A model generated the notes under the pieces. That model made no database searches. It was given only the letters and a program-made list of their open reading frames with translations, and was not told the DNA's origin. DNA of 30,915 nt from Deltaproteobacteria bacterium. Lineage in GTDB: Bacteria; Desulfobacterota; DSM-4660; Desulfatiglandales; HGW-15. The DNA lies in contig JAHECH010000001.1 in the NCBI GenBank assembly GCA_024641835.1, forward strand, positions 1 to 30,915. The letters run 5' to 3'. Shown here piece after piece: positions 2,820 through 22,323 of the stretch (position 1 is the stretch's first letter; each line of letters begins with the position of its first letter). Both the position numbers and the translations under genes were made by a program.

Positions 2820-3229
2820 AAGCAATGAGGATAGATCATATTTCCCTTGCAGTGAAGGACCTGAGTAAAGCAAGGGAGGCCTATGAGAAAGTTCTTGGCT
2901 TGGAGTTGGATTCCACGTACGTTTCAGAGAGGGAAAAAATTAGAGTTGCAAGATACTATTTGGGGGATGTGGCACTCGAACTCATGGAGCCTACCGCACC
3001 GGATAGTGAAGTTGCAAAATTCATTGAGCGCCGGGGGGAAGGTGTCTTTGTAATCTCCTATGAAGTCGGCGATGTAGACGAGGCGCTAGCCGAGCTAAGA
3101 AAGCAAGGCTGCAAGTTGATTGACGAAAAAGTACGTCATTTGCTGGGTGCTCGATATGCTTTTACTCTCCATCCAAAGGAACTCTGTGGGGTTCTTACGG
3201 AGGTGATCGACTATAGGAGAGGGGGATGA
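2816..3229 (+). CDS. VOC-family protein (methylmalonyl-CoA epimerase-like)
   Basis: IDHISLAV, LELMEP, GEG, LTEVI; ATGA overlap with the previous gene. Confidence 0.85.
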   Translation: MKAMRIDHISLAVKDLSKAREAYEKVLGLELDSTYVSEREKIRVARYYLGDVALELMEPTAPDSEVAKFIERRGEGVFVISYEVGDVDEALAELRKQGCKLIDEKVRHLLGARYAFTLHPKELCGVLTEVIDYRRGG

Positions 3230-3311
3230 GGAGACCCGCGCGTATAAGAGGCAACAATATTCGAATTGATTCTCGGGTGTTAGGAAGCAAATGCCAGTGG
3301 AGGAGCCGCAG

Positions 3312-4709
3312 ATGGTAGGAATCACATCTTTCGGAATCTACTTGCCGTTGTGGAGATTGCCCCTGGCCATGATTTCGGCGGGCTTCAAGGGAGAAAAGGC
3401 CGTGGCTGGTGCAGATGAGGACAGTGTAACCATGGCTGTCGCTGCTGCGATAGAGTGTTTAAAAGGTAGAAGTAGGAGCGAAATTGATGGGTTGATATTT
3501 TCCACTACAACGTCTCCGTATGCGGAGAAACAATTGGCGACACTGATTGCCTGTGCCTGCGATCTAAGGGAGGACATTCTTACTTTGGATATATCTGGTT
3601 CGCTTAAGGCCGGAACCGGGGCCCTTGCCGTCGGTTTGAACCTGGTTAAGGCAGGCGCAGCCCAAAACATCTTAGTTGTGGCTGCAGACTGCCGTATAGG
3701 GGCACCTGGCAGTGCTTTAGAGTTATCCATTGGCGATGGAGCGGCCGCGGTTATAGTGGGCAAAGATAACGTTCTTGCCGAATTTGAAGACGGTTTTTCC
3801 TTGGCCAATGAAATGATAGACGTGTGGCGGCACCAAAAGCAAAATTTTGTGCAGTCGTGGGAGGAGCGATTTGTCTCAGCGCTAGGTTACCAGAGAACGA
3901 TGATTGAGACGATCAAAGGCCTCATGGCCCGACAGGGCTTGAAAGCCCCAGATTATACTCGAATGGCTCTTTATTCTCCTGACATGAGAAGTCCGAGTCG
4001 AGTGGCGAAGGCCGCGGGATTTGACCCGAGTTCTCAGGTGCAGGACAGCTGTCTTTTTGCTATGGGAAACGTTGGCACCCCTCAACCTCTCTTGTTGTTG
4101 AGCGAGTTTTTGAGAGATGCCCAGGAAGAGGAGAGGGTCATGATAGCCGGATATGGGGGAGGAGGAGATGCGTTAAGCTTTAAGACTACAAAGAAGGTTC
4201 TTGATGCGCATAAGAAACGAGGTTTGAAGGAGTACCTTAACTCCAAGCGGGAGGTGCCCGACTATGTTACTTATCTCAGATGGCGGGAGCTGATTGATCA
4301 GGATCCGCCCACAGCTGAGTTCGGAAGCACTGAGGCGTCTGCTGCGTCGATTTGGCGTGAGCGTGGGCAGATATTCGCTCTTAAAGGCGCAAAATGCCGG
4401 TCCTGCGGGACCGTCCAATTTCCGTCGCAAAGGGTCTGTGTTCAATGTCACAGTAAGGATCAATTTGAAGTGATCCGGTTATCCGAGAGTGGAGGCAGGT
4501 TGTTTAGCTTTTCCAGGGACCCCCTTACTGACAACACGATGGGAATTGTCAATTTTGAGGAGGGCGGTCGAATGTTTGGGACTCTAACGGACTGTGTTTT
4601 TCATGAGCTGGAGGTAGATATGAGGGTAGTGATGCAGTTTCGTAAGACATTCTTTGATGGAAAAAAGCAGAACTATTTTTGGAAAATTTCACCTCAGAGA
4701 TTCTCATAG
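3312..4709 (+). CDS. HMG-CoA-synthase-like domain fused to DUF35 zinc-ribbon/OB-fold (thiolase partner)
   Basis: DEDSVTMA, KAGT, GNVG in the N-terminal domain; CRSC..CVQC zinc ribbon and OB-fold at the C-terminus; start moved to ATG 3312 (GGAGGAG RBS). Confidence 0.85.
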   Translation: MVGITSFGIYLPLWRLPLAMISAGFKGEKAVAGADEDSVTMAVAAAIECLKGRSRSEIDGLIFSTTTSPYAEKQLATLIACACDLREDILTLDISGSLKAGTGALAVGLNLVKAGAAQNILVVAADCRIGAPGSALELSIGDGAAAVIVGKDNVLAEFEDGFSLANEMIDVWRHQKQNFVQSWEERFVSALGYQRTMIETIKGLMARQGLKAPDYTRMALYSPDMRSPSRVAKAAGFDPSSQVQDSCLFAMGNVGTPQPLLLLSEFLRDAQEEERVMIAGYGGGGDALSFKTTKKVLDAHKKRGLKEYLNSKREVPDYVTYLRWRELIDQDPPTAEFGSTEASAASIWRERGQIFALKGAKCRSCGTVQFPSQRVCVQCHSKDQFEVIRLSESGGRLFSFSRDPLTDNTMGIVNFEEGGRMFGTLTDCVFHELEVDMRVVMQFRKTFFDGKKQNYFWKISPQRFS

Positions 4710-14684: not shown

Positions 14685-14849
14685 TGTCCACCGGAAGTTG
14701 TTACGCCTTGTAATCAGCTATGACCAATGGCAGGCTCTACCATTTCCAATTCCTTCAATGTCTTGGGCCAGTGTTCCCGAATTCTCTCCAGGGGAAGGGA
14801 TGCTAAATTGCTGAGAGCAGCACCTCCATCAAGATTTATAGACCCTTTA

Positions 14850-15040
14850 CTAACCGATTCACGAGCCCAGCAGAAACGGCTATTCCTCAGCAAGCTTGTG
14901 AAGAGCATCACAGTCCATCCTGACAAGCTCACCGTAGAATACCACCCACCCATTCTCGCCAAAAAAAAGCCCCACCGGCAAAAGGCGAGACTTTTTCCGT
15001 AATTGACATGGCGTCCCCAAAGGTACTCCCCATTCACTAG
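14850..15040 (+). pseudogene. C-terminal remnant of a large serine recombinase
   Basis: QKRLFLSKLVKSITVHPDKLTVEY; one extra A in the A8 run at 14961-14968 would give KKKAPPAKGETFSVIDMASPK, resembling LSR tails that read into a tRNA-derived att site. Confidence 0.55.
15009..15020 (-). other. Putative att core: 3' fragment of a tRNA-Glu-like gene
   Basis: + strand TGGCGTCCCCAA = minus strand TTGGGGACGCCA; bacterial tRNA-Glu genes end GGGGACGCCA; no tRNA body follows. Confidence 0.45.
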
Positions 15041-15228
15041 TGTTGTTATGTTCGCCTAAGAAGTCATGGAAATAACTTGGAATTCTATCCAACCAAGAGG
15101 CACAAGACTCCGATCATCGTGCGGATGAAATGCGCTGACTATGAAAAGTGACGGAGGGTTCTATTCTATCTTGAATCGAGCTGGGTTCTCATGTGTGATG
15201 TTTGCTTCGTCTCAAGGGCCTCAGAAGA

Positions 15229-15897
15229 CTAGAAAATGCAAAAACTACCAAGTTGGCGGTTTGCCAATTGCGGTTCCATCAGACAGATGTAGGGATCTGG
15301 ATACTGATATCTTGCATACTGGCTCTTGTCTATTGTGAATGAACCTGAAGCTAATTTTGACAGTTCCTTGTTTTTTCTAAGGTAGGGAAACGCAAACAGC
15401 ACCCTTTTGGTCGGGAAGAGGGACATCGCTGTTCTCACAGCAGGGGCGAGATCCGTATCTCCAGTTACTAACACCGCCGTATCACACTCATTCCTGAGAA
15501 ACACTTCTAGTAATTTTACCGCAATGGCCACATCTGTCTCCTTCTCTTCGTGTTTGAAGAAGATTTTGCCGCACTTTGGTTCCGGGCATTTTACTTGTCT
15601 CGGCTTAAACCGGCTCAACTCAACTATGACCCCAGTGTCCTCAAGGCATTTGATAAAACGCCGGTGCCGGGCAGTCACGTCCGGGTCAACGGCTTCTATA
15701 TGCGTGGCCAATGCCGAAAAGTAGTAGACATTAGCCAATCGCGTTTTGTCGCCAACTGCTTTCGCGACAAGGTGCAAGTAAGATGAACACAATCTCTTGA
15801 TATCCAGCCACTTTGTCGAGAGGCGCAAAATTTTTTCTGCTGATCGCACCGAGTGGTATAGATTGAACCCATCGACTAGGAAGGTGACGAGATTCAT
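15229..15897 (-). CDS. NYN-domain (PIN-like) ribonuclease, with probable 1-bp deletion near the C-terminus
   Basis: FLVDGFNLYH, EEKETDV, LVTGDTDLAPA acidic motifs; start ATG 15897; alternate frame ends LSDGTAIGKPPTW* at 15245. Confidence 0.88.
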   Translation of the reverse strand: MNLVTFLVDGFNLYHSVRSAEKILRLSTKWLDIKRLCSSYLHLVAKAVGDKTRLANVYYFSALATHIEAVDPDVTARHRRFIKCLEDTGVIVELSRFKPRQVKCPEPKCGKIFFKHEEKETDVAIAVKLLEVFLRNECDTAVLVTGDTDLAPAVRTAMSLFPTKRVLFAFPYLRKNKELSKLASGSFTIDKSQYARYQYPDPYICLMEPQLANRQLGSFCIF

Positions 15898-15939
15898 GGT
15901 GGAAGGCGGAATCCCTTCATGCAGAGTAAGGAAAGAGAC

Positions 15940-15970
15940 AAAAAAACCCGTTGGATCGCAACCCAACGGG
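15940..15970 (-). terminator. Intrinsic terminator upstream of the NYN gene
   Basis: Minus strand CCCGTTGG-(8 nt)-CCAACGGG followed by T7. Confidence 0.75.
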
Positions 15971-16006
15971 GGCCAGGGAGCCTATAAGGCCCCACTGGGG
16001 TAGACG
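15940..16006 (-). ncRNA. Candidate ~65-nt two-hairpin RNA/leader between the NYN promoter and terminator
   Basis: Hairpin CCAGTGGGGCC-TTATA-GGCTCCCTGG (15973-15998; 10 bp, one bulge, one G-U) followed by the terminator hairpin. Confidence 0.5.
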
Positions 16007-16011
16007 TAAGA

Positions 16012-16040
16012 ACTATATGCTCCCCATCCACATGTGTCAA
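16012..16040 (-). promoter_or_regulatory. Sigma70-type promoter driving the leader/NYN gene
   Basis: Minus strand TTGACA-N17-TATAGT. Confidence 0.8.
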
Positions 16041-16053
16041 GTTTTTTGATTTG

Positions 16054-16071
16054 TCTCGAATCGATTCGAGA
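16054..16071. promoter_or_regulatory. 18-bp perfect palindrome, possible operator
   Basis: TCTCGAATCGATTCGAGA, 13 bp upstream of the NYN -35 box. Confidence 0.4.
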
Positions 16072-16534
16072 TTTCCTCAAGATTCCTTGAGTGTGTGCCT
16101 TTGGCTCCTGGATCGATCTGCCGCTGACATGCCTCATAACGCCCCAACAATCTCCGATCCGCACCCATCTCATGCTCCGCTCCGAGCGCAAGTCCCGCCA
16201 CCCCATAGGGCGCAGGCGAAGTGCGGCTCACAATAGGGCAGGAAGGGCTGCCTTGCGGGCACGCAGAAATTAGAAATGTCCAAATACAGGAGGGGCGCAA
16301 TTCCCCGATGCCACCCGCACTGGGGAGAGTGTCCATCATGCACCTGTAAGGAGCGGGAGGATGATATAGAGTAGATGAACCCTGACGCCCATGGTGGTTT
16401 AGAAGATAGAAGGATTTGACGACTGTGAGTAAGTAAAACTGGGGTTTTCTAAACCGAATTCTGTGTAATCCTCGTCTCCGGCTGGGGGTCAAAATGCCCT
16501 TCGGGTATCCCCGCCTGCGGCTCTGATCTCCGCC

Positions 16535-16912
16535 CTACCGTTCTCCTTTGAACTGCTTTACGTTCAAAGCCTTCCACTGCAGGCCGGGATGATTTTGTAT
16601 CTTTTTCATCATCTCTTCATCATCCGTAATCAAGGAAGGGTCTATGTCTCCATGGTCCAGGATGTGGTCAAGAAACTCGCGCTCTCTTTGTGTGAATGGT
16701 AACACGACGGAGATGGCCTGCCGGCACTCTTCAACGACACGGGAAGCCCATCTTTCAGGTTCACGAACATAACCCGGCTCATCAATGCGCAATACAGGAG
16801 TCAACTCATTTGCCAGCTCAGCAGCACCATACCGGATGTCATCTACCGACACAGTACGCCAATCCTTTCGGTTCATCGCACCGTAAACGATCCTTTCTCG
16901 TGAGAGCTTCAA
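16535..16912 (-). pseudogene. abiEii: AbiEii nucleotidyltransferase toxin remnant with a large in-frame internal deletion
   Basis: TTG start overlapping the abiEi stop (TTGA) with GGAGG RBS; MKLSRERI joined directly to C-terminal VYGAMNRKDWRTVS..HPGLQWKALNV; no KGGT/S.D.D catalytic motifs; 125 aa. Confidence 0.75.
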
Positions 16913-17715
16913 CCCACTTCCTCCCATCTTCTTTCCAGTATTTCAGGTGGCACCACGAGATTCCATCTTTTTAAGAAACGGCCAGCTGTTCGGCCCTTAT
17001 GGACCATGTAGTGAGGTTTCACCGGTATAAATGAACCAAGACGATCAAGGTGACCCTCATCAGGCATCAGGGTATCCTGATGTTGCTCCAGAAAAAAACC
17101 CACTTTCGCGGCAGTTGTCGCATTGCCCAGGAGATGGGTGTATTCAACCACATTGTCAAGGTCAAAGAACTCGATCAACTCAAGCGACCTCCATATCTCT
17201 TCCCAGGTTCCTCCCATGGAAGGACGATCCAGCACGTCCACAAAGGTACGATCCAAGCTGGTCACTCGGACGTCCAGTCCCTGCCTATCAACGGACGTCA
17301 CGCCGAAGGACTCCTGTCCTTTTTCTCTCAGCTTCCTGGGGTGGGCTACCCCACGGTATCTTTGGCCTCTTAAATTCAGTGGACGGCTTTTTGATCGTGT
17401 GAGATACGCAAACTCCTCGCGCACTGAGTACGCCTTGCCGTGCAGCTCAAGGGCGGTGTGGTAGGCAAGGACTGCGTCAGGGGCCATTCTCGAAGTAAGC
17501 AGGTATGGATCAACTGGGCATTTTTCAGGGGTGAGTCCAGGCGGCACTGTGACATAAAGCCCACGCCGGACCCGCAGAAGATGCCCGCTCTTCGTATGAT
17601 GGTTCAGGATGGACTCGCGCGTTTTGACATTGGTGGAGCCTTTATCTGAGAGAAACTCCACTAAGTCCTGATAGGTGAAGACCGGGTGTGTTGCGAAGAA
17701 ATCTTGTAGTTTCAT
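16909..17715 (-). CDS. abiEi: AbiEi-type antitoxin/transcriptional regulator (type IV toxin-antitoxin)
   Basis: N-terminal wHTH (VFTYQDL..LLRVRRGLY), AVLAYHTALELHG, TSLDRTFVDVLDRP; start ATG 17715. Confidence 0.85.
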   Translation of the reverse strand: MKLQDFFATHPVFTYQDLVEFLSDKGSTNVKTRESILNHHTKSGHLLRVRRGLYVTVPPGLTPEKCPVDPYLLTSRMAPDAVLAYHTALELHGKAYSVREEFAYLTRSKSRPLNLRGQRYRGVAHPRKLREKGQESFGVTSVDRQGLDVRVTSLDRTFVDVLDRPSMGGTWEEIWRSLELIEFFDLDNVVEYTHLLGNATTAAKVGFFLEQHQDTLMPDEGHLDRLGSFIPVKPHYMVHKGRTAGRFLKRWNLVVPPEILERRWEEVG

Positions 17716-17746
17716 TTCCAACGCCCCGCTTGATAACAGGGATCTA

Positions 17747-17988: not shown

Positions 17989-18162
17989 GGTTGACAATCA
18001 CTAACAACCAGAGTAAATTGCCTCCAAACTTCGGCAATTCTTACAGATAGTTACCCCAGACAAATAAAACTCACTGGTGGATATGGCCTATTTCATTGAA
18101 AAGAAGGCTGCACCAAAGAGAGACGGATAGAGAACCCCATTTCTCAATTTGAGGGATGGGGT
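17989..18162 (+). repeat. Copy 1 of a 174-bp promoter + structured leader + terminator element
   Basis: Ungapped alignment to 22645-22818, 148/174 identical by hand count. Confidence 0.95.
17991..18019 (+). promoter_or_regulatory. Sigma70-type promoter, copy 1
   Basis: TTGACA-N17-TAAATT. Confidence 0.75.
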
Positions 18163-18172
18163 TTTGTTGTTG
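18133..18172 (+). terminator. Leader terminator hairpin, copy 1
   Basis: AACCCCATTTCTCA-ATT-TGAGGGATGGGGTT followed by TTGTTGTTG. Confidence 0.65.
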
Positions 18173-18731: not shown

Positions 18732-19505
18732 ATGAATCCACAGAAGATTGAACAGGATTTCCGAGAAAAGGTTTGCGACAAACTCAGAATCTCAAGTGAA
18801 GGCATGGACCGTTTTCGCGTCTTCACTCCTTTCATGTTTGAGGATGGCGACCATCTCTCGATCGTCCTGAAGAGGGATAATGGGGCGTGGATACTCTCGG
18901 ACGAAGGGCACACATACATGCACCTGACCTACGACCTGGATGAGAAAGACCTTCAACGAGGGACCAGGCAGAAGATCATTTCGAACGCCCTATCAGTGTT
19001 CAAGGTCCAGGACAGGGAAGGAGAACTGAGAGTCACCATAGAAGAAGACCAATACGGCAATGCCCTGTACAGTTTTGTCCAAGGGCTGCTCAAGATCACG
19101 GACATCACCTATCTCTCTCGCGAAAGGGTCCGATCCACCTTCATGGACGATTTCAGAGCATTCATGGAGGAATCCGTTCCTGAACATCGCAGGGTGTTTG
19201 ACTGGAACGATCCTCTCCATGATCCGGATGGAAAGTATACAGCCGATTGTAGGGTCAACGGGATGCCAAAGCCAGTCTTGGTTTATGCACTCCCGAGCGA
19301 CGACAAGACCCGGGATGCCACAATCACTCTGCTCCAGTTTGAAAAATGGGGCCTTGCCTTCCGGTCCCTTGCGATCTTTGAAGACCAGGAGATGATTAAT
19401 CGGAAGGTGCTGGCCCGCTATAGCGACGTCTGCGAGAAGCAGTTCTCAAGCCTGGGAGCCAACAGGGAAAGAATCAAACGGTACTTGGAAGAGTCTATGG
19501 AATAA
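18732..19505 (+). CDS. DUF1828-domain protein
   Basis: [28 protein letters not shown]-terminal pattern; C-terminal domain [17 protein letters not shown]. Confidence 0.78.
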
Positions 19506-19842
19506 ATGATTCTGATTGGAGCCTCATCCAACTCCACTTTCAAGTTCAGCCGGGTTACTCACGCTTTCCGCGCACACGGATCGGTGCTGAGGCGTCAAGG
19601 CGAGTTTCATGTCCCACTACCAGTGGAAAGAAGTAGGCCCCGCAAGTGGCTGAGACCTACTAGCTCCATTTGGGCGATGACGCAGTGGGCGAATCACCCG
19701 AGATTATGTCCAACCATAACCCGGTGGCGAAACACCAGCAGGTCTAGCGGGAAGTTGTGCCGGACAGCTTCTGCGTGATTTTGGGTGAATGGGATTCATT
19801 TCAATTCCCACATTTCTGATTGACCTGGAAAGGATAATGATC

Positions 19843-22323
19843 ATGGAAAAAAGGGGGGTGTTCAAGACAATCTTTGGCGGTACCCCGCGGGCTACAGATC
19901 CCGAAGGTCTTTTCCGCGACTTACGCGGCCGCTCCCCGGACATCAAACATCTGTGGTCGCATCAGGCTGACATTCTCAGGGACTACCATCAAAACTTCCA
20001 AACCGCAAAAGATGTGGCTATAGAACTTCCAACCGGCGCGGGCAAGACGCTGGTTGGACTAATCATTGCCGAGTTCCGTCGTCAGCTTTTTGACGAACGG
20101 GTGGCCTATCTATGCCCGACTCGCCAGCTCGCACGCCAAGTCGGGGCGCAAGCCTTGAAGTATGGCATCAGAGCACACGTTTTTGTTGGCAAACAAAAAG
20201 ACTATCCCCCCCTTGAGTTCAGCGAGTTCCAATCGAGCAAAGCAATAGGTGTTACTACTTACAGTGGAGTTTTCAACTCGCGCCCGCGCATTCGTGATGC
20301 CCAAACACTTATATTGGATGATGCCCACGCCAGCGAGAATTACATCTCAAATATGTGGTCAGTTGAAATTAACAGAAAGGCGACCGGAGAGCTCTATAGG
20401 GCCGTCGCGGACTTGTTTCAGGAGGGACTCCCTTCGGCCTTCTATGCCGATATTTGTGGTGATCGATCCCGAACGGATCTTATTGAGTTGATACCTGGCA
20501 AGTATGTACGGGCATTCCAAAAGGGTCTGCGAGATTTGCTGGACACCAAGCTAGAAAAGCAGAGCCCATCTTGGTATTCTTGGGAACTGATTAAAGAGCA
20601 CGTTGCTGCTTGCGGTATCTTCATATCGTGGGATTCGATTCTGCTACGTCCCTTCATCCCACCAGCACTCACACACACTGCCTTCACACAGGCTAATCAG
20701 CGAATTTACATGTCCGCCACCCTCGGAGCTGGTGGGGAGCTTGAACGAATCACCGGGATTTCATCCATCAAGAGATTACCAGTCCCGGCAGGTTGGGATA
20801 AACGTGGCAGTGGCCGGCGGCTGTTCCTAGCGCCGCAAGTGGCCATGGCTGATGCGGAGGCGATGGAAGTATTGCTGAAGGCTGTTCAGGCTACTCAAAG
20901 AACCTTGGTACTCACACCTAGTCAGCCCGAAGCTGCTGCTTTTGGTGCTGCCCTTGCTGAAAAGGGCGTAACCGTCCTTGGAGCGGCGGACATAGAGGAC
21001 TCAATCGAGCCGTTTTCGAAGAGCCAGGGTTCAGCCTTGGTTCTTTGTCGATACGATGGGTTAGATCTTCCCGATGACGCCTGCCGCCTGCTCATCATGG
21101 GCGGGCTGCCGAGCGGAACAAACCTCCAGGAGAAATTCTTGTGGTCCAGAATTGCTGCCTTTTCACTCCTTCGCGATCGTGTACTCACTAGGTTCACACA
21201 AGGAGTTGGCCGTTGTACGCGATCAGACAACGATTTTGCAGTGATATTCATATGGGGCCGTCCACTTGTGGACTTTGTCCTAAAACAGGAAAATCGACGC
21301 ATTCTTAATCCTGAACTCCAGTCCGAACTTGAATTTGGAATCGAAAACTGCAAGGACACAAAGGGAGAACAGTTCGAGGGCCTGTGGAACGCATTTCTAG
21401 CTCAAAGCGAAGAATGGGAAGATGCTGAGAATGCAATAATAAACCTGAGGGAACAAAAATCGAGGAACGCTGATCCCATTTCAGAACGACTTTTCTCCGT
21501 GGTAGCCGACGAGGTATCTTATCTTTACTCGATGTGGAAAGGAGACTATGAGTCAGCTTTGGAACTCGCTCGCAGGATTGCAGACGGGTTAGGCGGTGAC
21601 GAGACAAAGGGCTATCGAGGCTGGTGGTATTATCTTGCGGCTGATGCAGCTATGGCCCTTTATGAGGCAACCGGAGAGGATGATCTTTCCGAAACGGCTA
21701 AGGACGCTTTGAAGCGCGCATCCAAGTGCTGTTCGGCGATCAGTTGGTTCGCCCGCCTAGCTCGTTCTGCCCGAGCTGGAGTGGATGTCAGTGCACCCAA
21801 CGAAGTTGCGGCCATTGCCGTGGAAAACATCCGTGACAAACTCACTGAGTGGGGAACTGTAGGTAAACGGTTCGAGCGAGAGGTTTCCCAGGCGATTAAG
21901 GATCTTCAAGCCACAGAGCACAAAACATTTCATAGAGGGTTGAAAGTTCTTGGTGAGATGCTTGGATTCCGATCTGAATTGCCCCGCGGCGATGGCGGGC
22001 CAGATTGCATCTGGTCAATCGGAAATGATCTATATATTGTTCACGAGGCCAAGTCGGATCACACGCCTGGTGACACCATCGGAGTCAATGCTGTAAGGCA
22101 GGCGCAAAGCCATGAAGATTGGGTCCGGGGTAATCGCAAATGCAGCGATGCAACTCAGGTGTTGCCTTTGATCGAAACACCGCGCAAAGTAGTGTCCCAA
22201 GATGCATTACCGTATGCTAAATCCCTTTGTCATGTATCGCCAGTACAACTGAAGGGCATGTGCGAGCGGGTTTCAGAAGTTCTTCGCCGAATCAGGGCTA
22301 ATTCTCCCAATCTAAGCGATTAG
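19843..22323 (+). CDS. SF2 DEAD/DEAH helicase with C-terminal PD-(D/E)xK nuclease (Hna-like); TAG at 22321 probably premature
   Basis: ELPTGAGKT, YLCPTRQLARQV, LDDAHA, YMSATLG, QGVGRCTR, PDCIW..HEAKS; AGGA RBS supports ATG 19843; frame stays open 35 codons past TAG to TGA 22431. Confidence 0.85.
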   Translation: MEKRGVFKTIFGGTPRATDPEGLFRDLRGRSPDIKHLWSHQADILRDYHQNFQTAKDVAIELPTGAGKTLVGLIIAEFRRQLFDERVAYLCPTRQLARQVGAQALKYGIRAHVFVGKQKDYPPLEFSEFQSSKAIGVTTYSGVFNSRPRIRDAQTLILDDAHASENYISNMWSVEINRKATGELYRAVADLFQEGLPSAFYADICGDRSRTDLIELIPGKYVRAFQKGLRDLLDTKLEKQSPSWYSWELIKEHVAACGIFISWDSILLRPFIPPALTHTAFTQANQRIYMSATLGAGGELERITGISSIKRLPVPAGWDKRGSGRRLFLAPQVAMADAEAMEVLLKAVQATQRTLVLTPSQPEAAAFGAALAEKGVTVLGAADIEDSIEPFSKSQGSALVLCRYDGLDLPDDACRLLIMGGLPSGTNLQEKFLWSRIAAFSLLRDRVLTRFTQGVGRCTRSDNDFAVIFIWGRPLVDFVLKQENRRILNPELQSELEFGIENCKDTKGEQFEGLWNAFLAQSEEWEDAENAIINLREQKSRNADPISERLFSVVADEVSYLYSMWKGDYESALELARRIADGLGGDETKGYRGWWYYLAADAAMALYEATGEDDLSETAKDALKRASKCCSAISWFARLARSARAGVDVSAPNEVAAIAVENIRDKLTEWGTVGKRFEREVSQAIKDLQATEHKTFHRGLKVLGEMLGFRSELPRGDGGPDCIWSIGNDLYIVHEAKSDHTPGDTIGVNAVRQAQSHEDWVRGNRKCSDATQVLPLIETPRKVVSQDALPYAKSLCHVSPVQLKGMCERVSEVLRRIRANSPNLSD

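Follow-up and report, generated by a model that had tools for sequence, protein, structure and literature searches.

Does the short structured RNA encoded directly upstream of an NYN ribonuclease gene act as an antitoxin of that nuclease, or is it a leader through which the gene is expressed? The question is raised by a locus on the minus strand of the window, by which we mean the whole 30,915-nucleotide stretch of DNA analysed here, where a promoter, a small RNA, a terminator and a nuclease gene follow one another. This layout had been compared in a preliminary description with type III toxin-antitoxin systems, and its geometry indeed corresponds to theirs. The systems ToxIN, CptIN and TenpIN share with it a promoter, a non-coding RNA, an intrinsic terminator and a ribonuclease gene (PMC3401426, PMC8860590, PMC13682666), as well as a nuclease expressed through read-through only and a mobile module found in defence islands. 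However, the RNA of the window is a single two-hairpin unit and not a tandem repeat array, and its nuclease is NYN/PIN-like and not of the ToxN/AbiQ, CptN or TenpN family.

In two other systems described as type III-like, a protein toxin is likewise controlled by a small RNA without repeats that is encoded beside the effector gene: AvcID, where the sRNA AvcI is paired with the deoxycytidylate deaminase AvcD (PMC10511110), and the ncRNA-associated AbiF (PMC12373285). The effector families and the RNAs of both are nevertheless unrelated to those studied here, and Rfam scans gave no similarity. In the literature searched we found neither a description of the two-hairpin RNA nor any RNA partner for an NYN protein, and the earlier statement that no RNA antitoxin is described for such a protein agrees with that search.

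The locus in the window and its nuclease

The features of the locus are collected in Table 1. The sigma-70 promoter proposed at first, TTGACA-17-TATAGT, is present at 16040-16012, matches the consensus at 11 of 12 positions and is the top-scoring one in the 6-kb region scanned. The RNA that follows begins at G16005 (position 1) and occurs as one copy in the source genome when searched with our covariance model R1, which it matches with 75.6 bits (E 7e-19). Folding of positions 16007-15938 (70 nt) gives two hairpins, with an energy of -33.5 kcal/mol (z = -3.5 relative to dinucleotide shuffles). Folding bears out the bulged hairpin of the preliminary description, here called P1, in which a bulge of 1 nt separates 4 bp at the base from 7 bp in the apical stem. 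The second hairpin, P2, and the U7 tract are a textbook intrinsic terminator, whose position and U-tract had been recognised correctly, whereas its stem, first counted as 8 bp, has 10 pairs. The gap of 42 nt between the terminator and the NYN start codon was found as described. A GAAGG/CCTTC stem said to cover the Shine-Dalgarno sequence does exist in the sequence, but lies outside the minimum-energy fold of the longer transcript.

Table 1. Features of the promoter, small RNA and NYN gene, in window coordinates
Feature	Position	Strand	Basis or remark
-35 hexamer TTGACA of the RNA promoter	16035..16040	-	promoter scan
-10 hexamer TATAGT	16012..16017	-	end lies 6 nt upstream of RNA position 1
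Small RNA gene, 66 nt: 5' tail, P1, CC junction, P2, U-tract	15940..16005	-	covariance model, fold
Single-stranded 5' tail GUCUACC, 7 nt	15999..16005	-	family consensus AUCAUCC
Hairpin P1: CCAG/CUGG base, bulge, apical stem of variable length	15973..15998	-	fold, covariation
Conserved CC junction between P1 and P2	15971..15972	-	alignment
Hairpin P2, 10-bp, G+C-rich, UGCG (UNCG-type) tetraloop; intrinsic terminator stem	15947..15970	-	fold, terminator scan
U7 tract of the terminator	15940..15946	-	terminator scan
Spacer from terminator to NYN start, 42 nt	15898..15939	-	without space or signal for a promoter of its own
NYN (HEC-09-type) ORF, 222 aa; residues 1-204 homologous, final 18 aa out of frame	15229..15897	-	homologue alignment
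1-nt deletion, ATC-CTG to ATC-TG, frame shifted at codon 205	15285..15286	-	comparison with P0002
Ancestral C-terminal coding segment (LSDGTAIGKPPTW plus stop), now out of frame	15245..15284	-	frame comparison

The ATG at 15897 is backed by the conserved N-terminus of the homologues, M-N-R-x-x-F-L-V-D-G-F-N-L-Y-H. At the other end of the protein, the window copy and its homologues share no identity beyond residue 204. The closely related protein P0002 ends in ILSDGTAIGKPPSW, and the window contains LSDGTAIGKPPTW followed by a stop codon (15247-15245) when it is read in the other frame, so that one base must have been lost between 15286 and 15285. This deletion exchanges the conserved C-terminal 13 residues for 18 unrelated ones. 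Since an independent Logan contig of the source sample covers 15100-15669 with zero differences, the deletion is not an artefact of a single assembly, though the sample is shared. As judged by the loss of the conserved C-terminus, the nuclease of the window is probably disabled. In a close relative (L329) an intact NYN gene follows a near-identical promoter and an RNA that has the same GUCUACC tail and differs from the window RNA at two places in the loop of P1, by a substitution and by an additional base.

Around the locus lies a defence island that has partly decayed. PADLOC identifies in it an intact AbiEi gene, an AbiEii remnant that encodes the last third of the protein only, and PDC-M24B and PDC-S28 candidates.

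The window protein matches the Pfam NYN family (PF01936) with 42.4 bits against a cut-off of 24.2 (E 1.3e-10), and its relatives, of 212-217 aa, number in the thousands. Among 60 homologues, residues G10, F11, N12, Y14, H15, S16, E118, K119, D122, G146, D147 and D149 are invariant, the motif GFNLYHS is invariant or nearly so, and D9 is conserved in at least 90%; the four aspartates D9, D122, D147 and D149 are all present in the window protein. Three cysteines (C37, C104 and C109) are also invariant in this set and a fourth (C138) is nearly so, a pattern that suggests a metal site. A structure model of P0002, which is 91% identical to the window protein, reaches a pLDDT of 96.1, and the PDB entries that match it best are 2qip, a LabA-like protein (E 2e-8), and, with TM scores by target of 0.66-0.71, 5yaa and 6fdl, which are NYN domains of MARF1. 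On the grounds of the profile match, the conserved residues and the PIN-like fold, membership in the NYN family is firm and the family looks catalytically competent.

The NYN/PIN-like catalytic fold is also that of Regnase-1/ZC3H12A and MARF1, although these are eukaryotic, multidomain proteins without a dedicated small RNA gene, at 10-12% identity. Stem-loops are recognised by Regnase-1, whose targets for cleavage include its own mRNA, and it is thus a precedent for the recognition of a hairpin RNA by an NYN protein.

Among the systems compared is also HEC-09, or Hma-embedded candidate 9, a candidate defence system of PADLOC whose protein has an NYN/MARF1-like RNase fold and three conserved Asp (Payne et al., bioRxiv 10.1101/2024.01.29.577857). 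The three conserved Asp and the MARF1-like fold are common to both, and the PADLOC model of HEC-09 (PDLC04163) matches residues 2-201 of the window protein (E 6.4e-39). Unlike HEC-09, the window gene lies outside any Hma system, and it adjoins the decayed AbiE pair. When cloned with its putative native promoter region, HEC-09 did not protect against the phages used in that work, whose main text contains neither 'ncRNA' nor 'non-coding' (Payne et al., bioRxiv 10.1101/2024.01.29.577857). The negative result with phages counts against the antitoxin reading of the RNA.

A structured RNA that accompanies NYN genes

Whether the arrangement belongs to the window or to the gene family was examined at 80 NYN loci from species-representative genomes, whose proteins are 42-68% identical to that of the window. 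They come from Desulfobacterota, Acidobacteriota, Bacteroidota, Chloroflexota, Actinomycetota, Gemmatimonadota, Verrucomicrobiota, Eisenbacteria, Thermotogota and other phyla. At 71 of the 78 testable loci, a simple scan detected a hairpin resembling a terminator no more than about 80 nt from the start of NYN, with a conserved loop and covarying stems. Model R1 matched 78 of the 80 loci at 21-80 bits (E at most 3e-7 for all but one), always on the NYN strand and immediately upstream of the gene. As for the two negative loci, the upstream sequence of L036 is only 3 nt long, and L066 has what by eye is a degenerate copy of the RNA. The RNA also misleads annotation into extending the NYN ORF upstream: the N-termini of P0014 and P0003 are spuriously lengthened across the RNA gene.

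We tested covariation in an alignment of 61 RNA copies (A2), for which the structure was specified by hand. The consensus consists of a purine, UCAUCC, P1 (CCAG ... CUGG), CC, P2 (CCCnCCGGGU-UGCG-AYCCGGnGGG) and a U-tract. With the specified structure, 89.9% of the cells are paired and 18 of the 20 pairs have changes on both sides; the covariation values were reached in none of 500 shuffles, and the signal collapsed to much lower values when the 3' partners were slid. Both-side changes affect all 10 modelled pairs of P1 and 8 of the 10 pairs of P2, where 96.5% of the cells are paired. The structure is therefore conserved upstream of the NYN homologues.

Conservation within the RNA is uneven. 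Sequence is conserved in the 5' tail (U2, C3 and C6 in at least 90% of copies), in the base of P1 and in the CC junction. The P1 apex is variable in both sequence and length; insertions there, found at L047, L061, L062, L068 and L071, can be as long as about 15 nt. The tetraloop of P2 occurs as UGCG, UACG or CACG, all of the UNCG type, above a closing pair that covaries between U-A, C-G and G-C; this fits better than a T-loop or tRNA mimic, an interpretation of the P2 loop that we rejected. The copies have a median length of 65 nt (58-78) and a median minimum free energy of -33.8 kcal/mol; in 69 of 79 of them, the 10-nt window formed by the last 7 positions of the model and the next 3 nt contains 7 or more T. 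An RNA so rich in G+C and capped by a UNCG loop may be long-lived, which fits poorly with the model of a labile antitoxin.

The RNA does not fall into the classes compared here. No match in the window reached gathering scores in Rfam 15, the check called for at the outset; the best permissive match was anti-hemB, which reached 14.7 bits where its gathering score is 49.5. Tandem or direct repeats are absent from 15100-16500 and the RNA is a single unit at all loci, so that it is not a classical ToxI-like array. Nor is it type I-like, since antisense complementarity to the NYN mRNA was not found: duplexes of the 5' tail with the spacer and the first 90 nt of the ORF had a mean of -7.4 kcal/mol, compared with -6.6 kcal/mol in shuffles, at scattered positions, and the reverse complement of a tail or P1 hexamer was present in 3 of 79 cognate spacers and in 3.5% of non-cognate pairs. 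By inspection of alignments A2 and A3 we found no conserved antiterminator or alternative pairing, and the only element seen 5' of the terminator is the hairpin with a variable apex, with no domain of aptamer size, which makes a riboswitch unlikely. On comparative grounds, the RNA is a well-supported new family of bacterial non-coding RNA, about 65 nt long and present in many phyla, whatever its function.

Promoter and gene are placed with similar regularity around this RNA. Most of the 80 loci have a TTGAC-type -35 element with a spacing of 16-18 nt, and a promoter with at least 9 of 12 matches precedes the RNA in 57 of 80 copies; in 45 of these 57 the -10 element ends 5-8 nt before RNA position 1, a distance from which we conclude that the conserved tail is the 5' end of the transcript. 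On the other side, the end of the RNA is separated from the NYN start codon by a median of 14 nt (range 1-51; at most 20 nt in 57 of 79 copies). So short a gap leaves no space for a separate NYN promoter, and NYN should thus be transcribed by read-through of the terminator. The spacers vary in sequence as well as in length, and the GAAGG/CCTTC stem, being restricted to the window and the near-identical L329, cannot be taken as a feature of the family. Because an SD-like 4-mer is present in only 28 of 79 spacers, translation of NYN is probably weak too; where the spacer is very short, the G-rich 3' arm of P2 is the sole purine-rich element, and at many of these loci the sole SD-like one.

The upstream genes differ at every locus, and no neighbouring protein family is common to more than 3 of the 80 loci, so that we found no conserved protein partner. 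Because no protein neighbour is conserved, the conserved unit, as judged from these loci, is the promoter, the RNA and NYN, a self-contained module. The promoter-RNA-terminator unit is real and far beyond chance, since the whole of it recurs with covariation at 78 of the 80 homologues; linkage to the NYN family is thus specific and almost invariable for this short structured RNA, which has a promoter and a terminator of its own, in line with what was proposed from the window. That there is no dedicated RNA, and that a promoter-like site, a hairpin and the upstream gene's terminator merely lie side by side by chance, is vanishingly improbable: counts of promoter-like and terminator-like sites in the window alone are not above those in shuffles, but covariation in the form of compensatory changes, the linkage at 78 of 80 loci in many phyla and neighbours that are not shared refute it.

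Copies in viruses and searches in other genomes

The RNA is also carried by viruses. It occurs together with NYN in the IMG/VR contigs L091-L093, L095, L100, L103-L113 and L116, with protein identities down to about 30%. In addition, three viral records (L144, L090 and L227) contain the RNA and were negative for NYN when the whole record was searched, a count of three that comes from pattern scans biased towards the consensus. Two loose DNA patterns run on viral contigs gave about 120 mostly random matches each, of which only L144 and L227 passed the covariance model. The first of the three (L144) is a 33-kb phage record, 99% complete by CheckV, where the RNA (49.7 bits) has the tail-terminator gene on one side and the major-tail gene on the other and is located just upstream of the tape-measure gene. 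The second (L090) is a 70-kb provirus, 94% complete, with the RNA (50.8 bits) after a tail-fibre-like gene and without a U-tract. The third (L227) is a fragment, 22% complete, with a match of 32.6 bits. The phage orphan RNAs occupy spots typical of ordinary terminators.

These orphan copies favour a trans-acting inhibitor, comparable to a type III antitoxin, over a purely cis-acting leader. Their terminator-like position counts against the antitoxin reading, and they could also be remnants of modules that have lost NYN. They would make sense if the RNA inhibits in trans and can be supplied by the phage. A phage has reportedly escaped ToxIN by carrying a toxI-like RNA, and the orphan copies parallel that case.

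Searches elsewhere were largely negative. In 150 genomes of the same phylum, R1 gave only four weak matches (26-30 bits), which we rejected as ordinary terminators with no NYN gene nearby; in one case the terminator directly follows a sequence like the T-arm of a tRNA. A distant blastn search of E. coli chromosomes and plasmids, with the copy from an enterobacterial MAG as query, gave no match. Small enterobacterial plasmids encode an NYN protein that is 32% identical, and its leader scores 10.6 bits with R1; as the model does not recognise this leader, the RNA family as modelled stops short of these plasmids. Logan contigs of two metatranscriptomes covered neither the RNA nor the NYN gene; one of the two contained short pieces matching at 90-95%, apparently from other organisms.

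Function of the RNA

Taken with the geometry of the locus, these results make a type III-like antitoxin a plausible interpretation of the RNA. In its specific form, namely an RNA antitoxin whose terminator also throttles expression of the toxin in cis, we give the proposal about an even chance of being correct. The near-consensus sigma-70 promoter would drive constitutive transcription from the purine just before the tail AUCAUCC, and the very stable P2 terminator would stop most transcripts and so yield an abundant two-hairpin RNA. NYN would be made only from rare read-through transcripts, mostly without a free Shine-Dalgarno sequence. A strong promoter, a stable terminator, a promoterless nuclease gene and a poor ribosome-binding site should together give much RNA and little nuclease, which would be the stoichiometry of toxin-antitoxin systems of type III. 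The tail, the base of P1 and the CC junction may form the surface recognised by the protein, for the sequence conservation of single strands and helix ends suggests that a protein recognises them, and NYN is the sole conserved partner. We infer that the RNA binds NYN and keeps the nuclease inactive, that NYN is toxic, and that the module responds to a trigger, which in the preliminary description would be the shut-off of transcription by a phage, and has a role against phages; to phages with only the RNA, it would serve as a decoy antidote.

How the RNA might hold the nuclease is more speculative. P1 and P2 may stack on each other across the CC hinge, so that the 5' tail and the 3' U-tail meet like the flaps of a flap-nuclease substrate, and such an arrangement might suit a PIN-like active site as a pseudo-substrate. 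The broadest proposal, that of a widespread and undescribed class of RNA-protein toxin-antitoxin or anti-phage module where a single-copy two-hairpin RNA locks an NYN/PIN-like nuclease, perhaps through a pseudo-substrate resembling a double flap, and where phages use RNA decoys, is tentative and on balance unlikely to hold in full.

Among the alternatives, a leader that acts purely in cis is improbable, though the likeliest of them. The constitutive terminator and an occluded ribosome-binding region would together gate NYN, and the short RNA would be a by-product; in variants of this scheme, NYN may bind or cleave its own leader in a form of autoregulation comparable to that of Regnase-1, or antitermination induced by a phage may switch NYN on. 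The strict position of the RNA, always immediately upstream on the same strand, is equally expected for such a leader, and NYN has no promoter of its own. The dependence of many short-spacer loci on the 3' arm of P2 for an SD-like element points in the same direction, as does another promoter-leader-terminator unit that heads other defence operons in the window. However, the conservation of the 5' tail, the base of P1 and the CC junction across phyla exceeds the needs of a terminator, the alignments offer no conserved pairing by which a switch could operate, and the two near-complete phage and provirus records contain the RNA alone, with no NYN to regulate.

A quite unlikely alternative is that the RNA is a positive cofactor or scaffold, needed for the folding, assembly, target choice or sensing of NYN, which would be inactive without it. 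Co-inheritance of the two is nearly obligate over a range of about 30-91% protein identity, as would be expected of such a cofactor, and the defence systems retrons, DRT9 and DRT10, among those described recently, reportedly have a dedicated ncRNA as a structural component. The RNA of the NYN loci, however, is mostly base-paired, the variable apex of P1 is a closed hairpin and nothing in it is guide-like; its conserved single strands are no more complementary to the NYN mRNA than background, and a phage has no obvious gain from an activator alone.

If the RNA does neutralise the nuclease, as the antitoxin reading holds, the module would be a structurally new family among the few RNA-antitoxin (type III) systems, and the first with an NYN/PIN-like toxin and a hairpin RNA without repeats. 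The negative test of HEC-09 would then have a possible reason in an RNA:protein balance or a trigger that is specific to the host or the phage, and the orphan RNAs borne by phages would be candidate anti-defence elements.

Versions of the NYN module and its RNA

Contigs assembled from two sequencing runs of the source sediment (X1 and X4) match the window through the terminator hairpin P2 of the small RNA, and then part from it exactly within the first hairpin, P1 (window 15932-15977), the loose end of the diverging contigs lying at 15977. The contigs of these runs also carry several NYN variants, with 2-18 differences. Taken together, these contig sequences indicate that the source sample contains other versions of the module in which the P1 sequence is different.

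Among the fetched loci, L072 has, besides the copy linked to NYN, an extra copy of the RNA (2360-2418, 54 bits), which lies 534 nt further upstream and precedes a small ORF that, judged by eye, is HicB-like in appearance. In L330 a HicB-type gene (Pfam HicB) adjoins the RNA-NYN module, and HicB-type genes possibly stand beside the module in L057 and L058 too.

Database gene calls for the homologues P0003 and P0014, and the call at 2908-3654 of locus L001, begin upstream and read straight through the RNA gene, which is thereby mis-annotated as coding; spurious N-terminal extensions of 30-37 aa result from such calls in some homologues.

Neighbouring genes and signals in the window

The features flanking the module are collected in the table. 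The match of the AbiEii remnant to its model is so limited that the AbiE pair beside the NYN module is without most of its toxin gene, which, as read from the sequence of 16535-17721 (minus), has mostly been lost. Between this pair and the RNA promoter, the 151-aa ORF had no match in Pfam, PADLOC or NCBIfam and may not be a real gene. Downstream of NYN, the terminator-like hairpin is placed within or after the 107-aa ORF, for which no family match was found. The promoter-terminator unit on the plus strand is an element distinct from the NYN RNA.

Features around the NYN module in the window
Feature	Position	Strand	Remark
107-aa ORF	14714-15037	minus	
Terminator-like hairpin + T8 tract	14969-14986	minus	~240 nt 3' of NYN stop
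151-aa ORF, TTG start	16037-16492	minus	3' end inside -35 hexamer of RNA promoter
AbiEii remnant, 130-aa ORF	16535-16927	minus	PADLOC AbiEii model, positions 203-305 of 306 only
AbiEi	16909-17721	minus	full length, PADLOC E 9e-112
Promoter TTGACA-17-TAAATT + 16-pair terminator	17991-18165	plus	second such unit in window
PDC-M24B (DUF1828) + PDC-S28 (DinG-like helicase)	18732-22323	plus	PADLOC candidates, 3' of second promoter/terminator

The NYN subfamily and its plasmid relatives

In the family alignment (A4, 60 homologues), three of the cysteines C37, C104, C109 and C138 (numbering of P0002, 91% identical to the window's NYN) are invariant and one is nearly so. Two of the four lie in an inserted KCPxxxCG knuckle directly before the catalytic EKETD motif, and this pattern suggests that the NYN subfamily has a zinc site of its own.

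Approximately 300 plasmid records, mainly of small enterobacterial plasmids (for example L086, 1255-1416, and L087, from E. coli and Klebsiella, 3.5-4.2 kb), code for a NYN protein of 32% identity, which starts ~20 nt 3' of a strong terminator closing a leader of ~160 nt. This leader is highly structured (z = -6.5) and differs from the window's small RNA, whose covariance model (R1) did not recognise it; it may be a further RNA family that has NYN as its partner.
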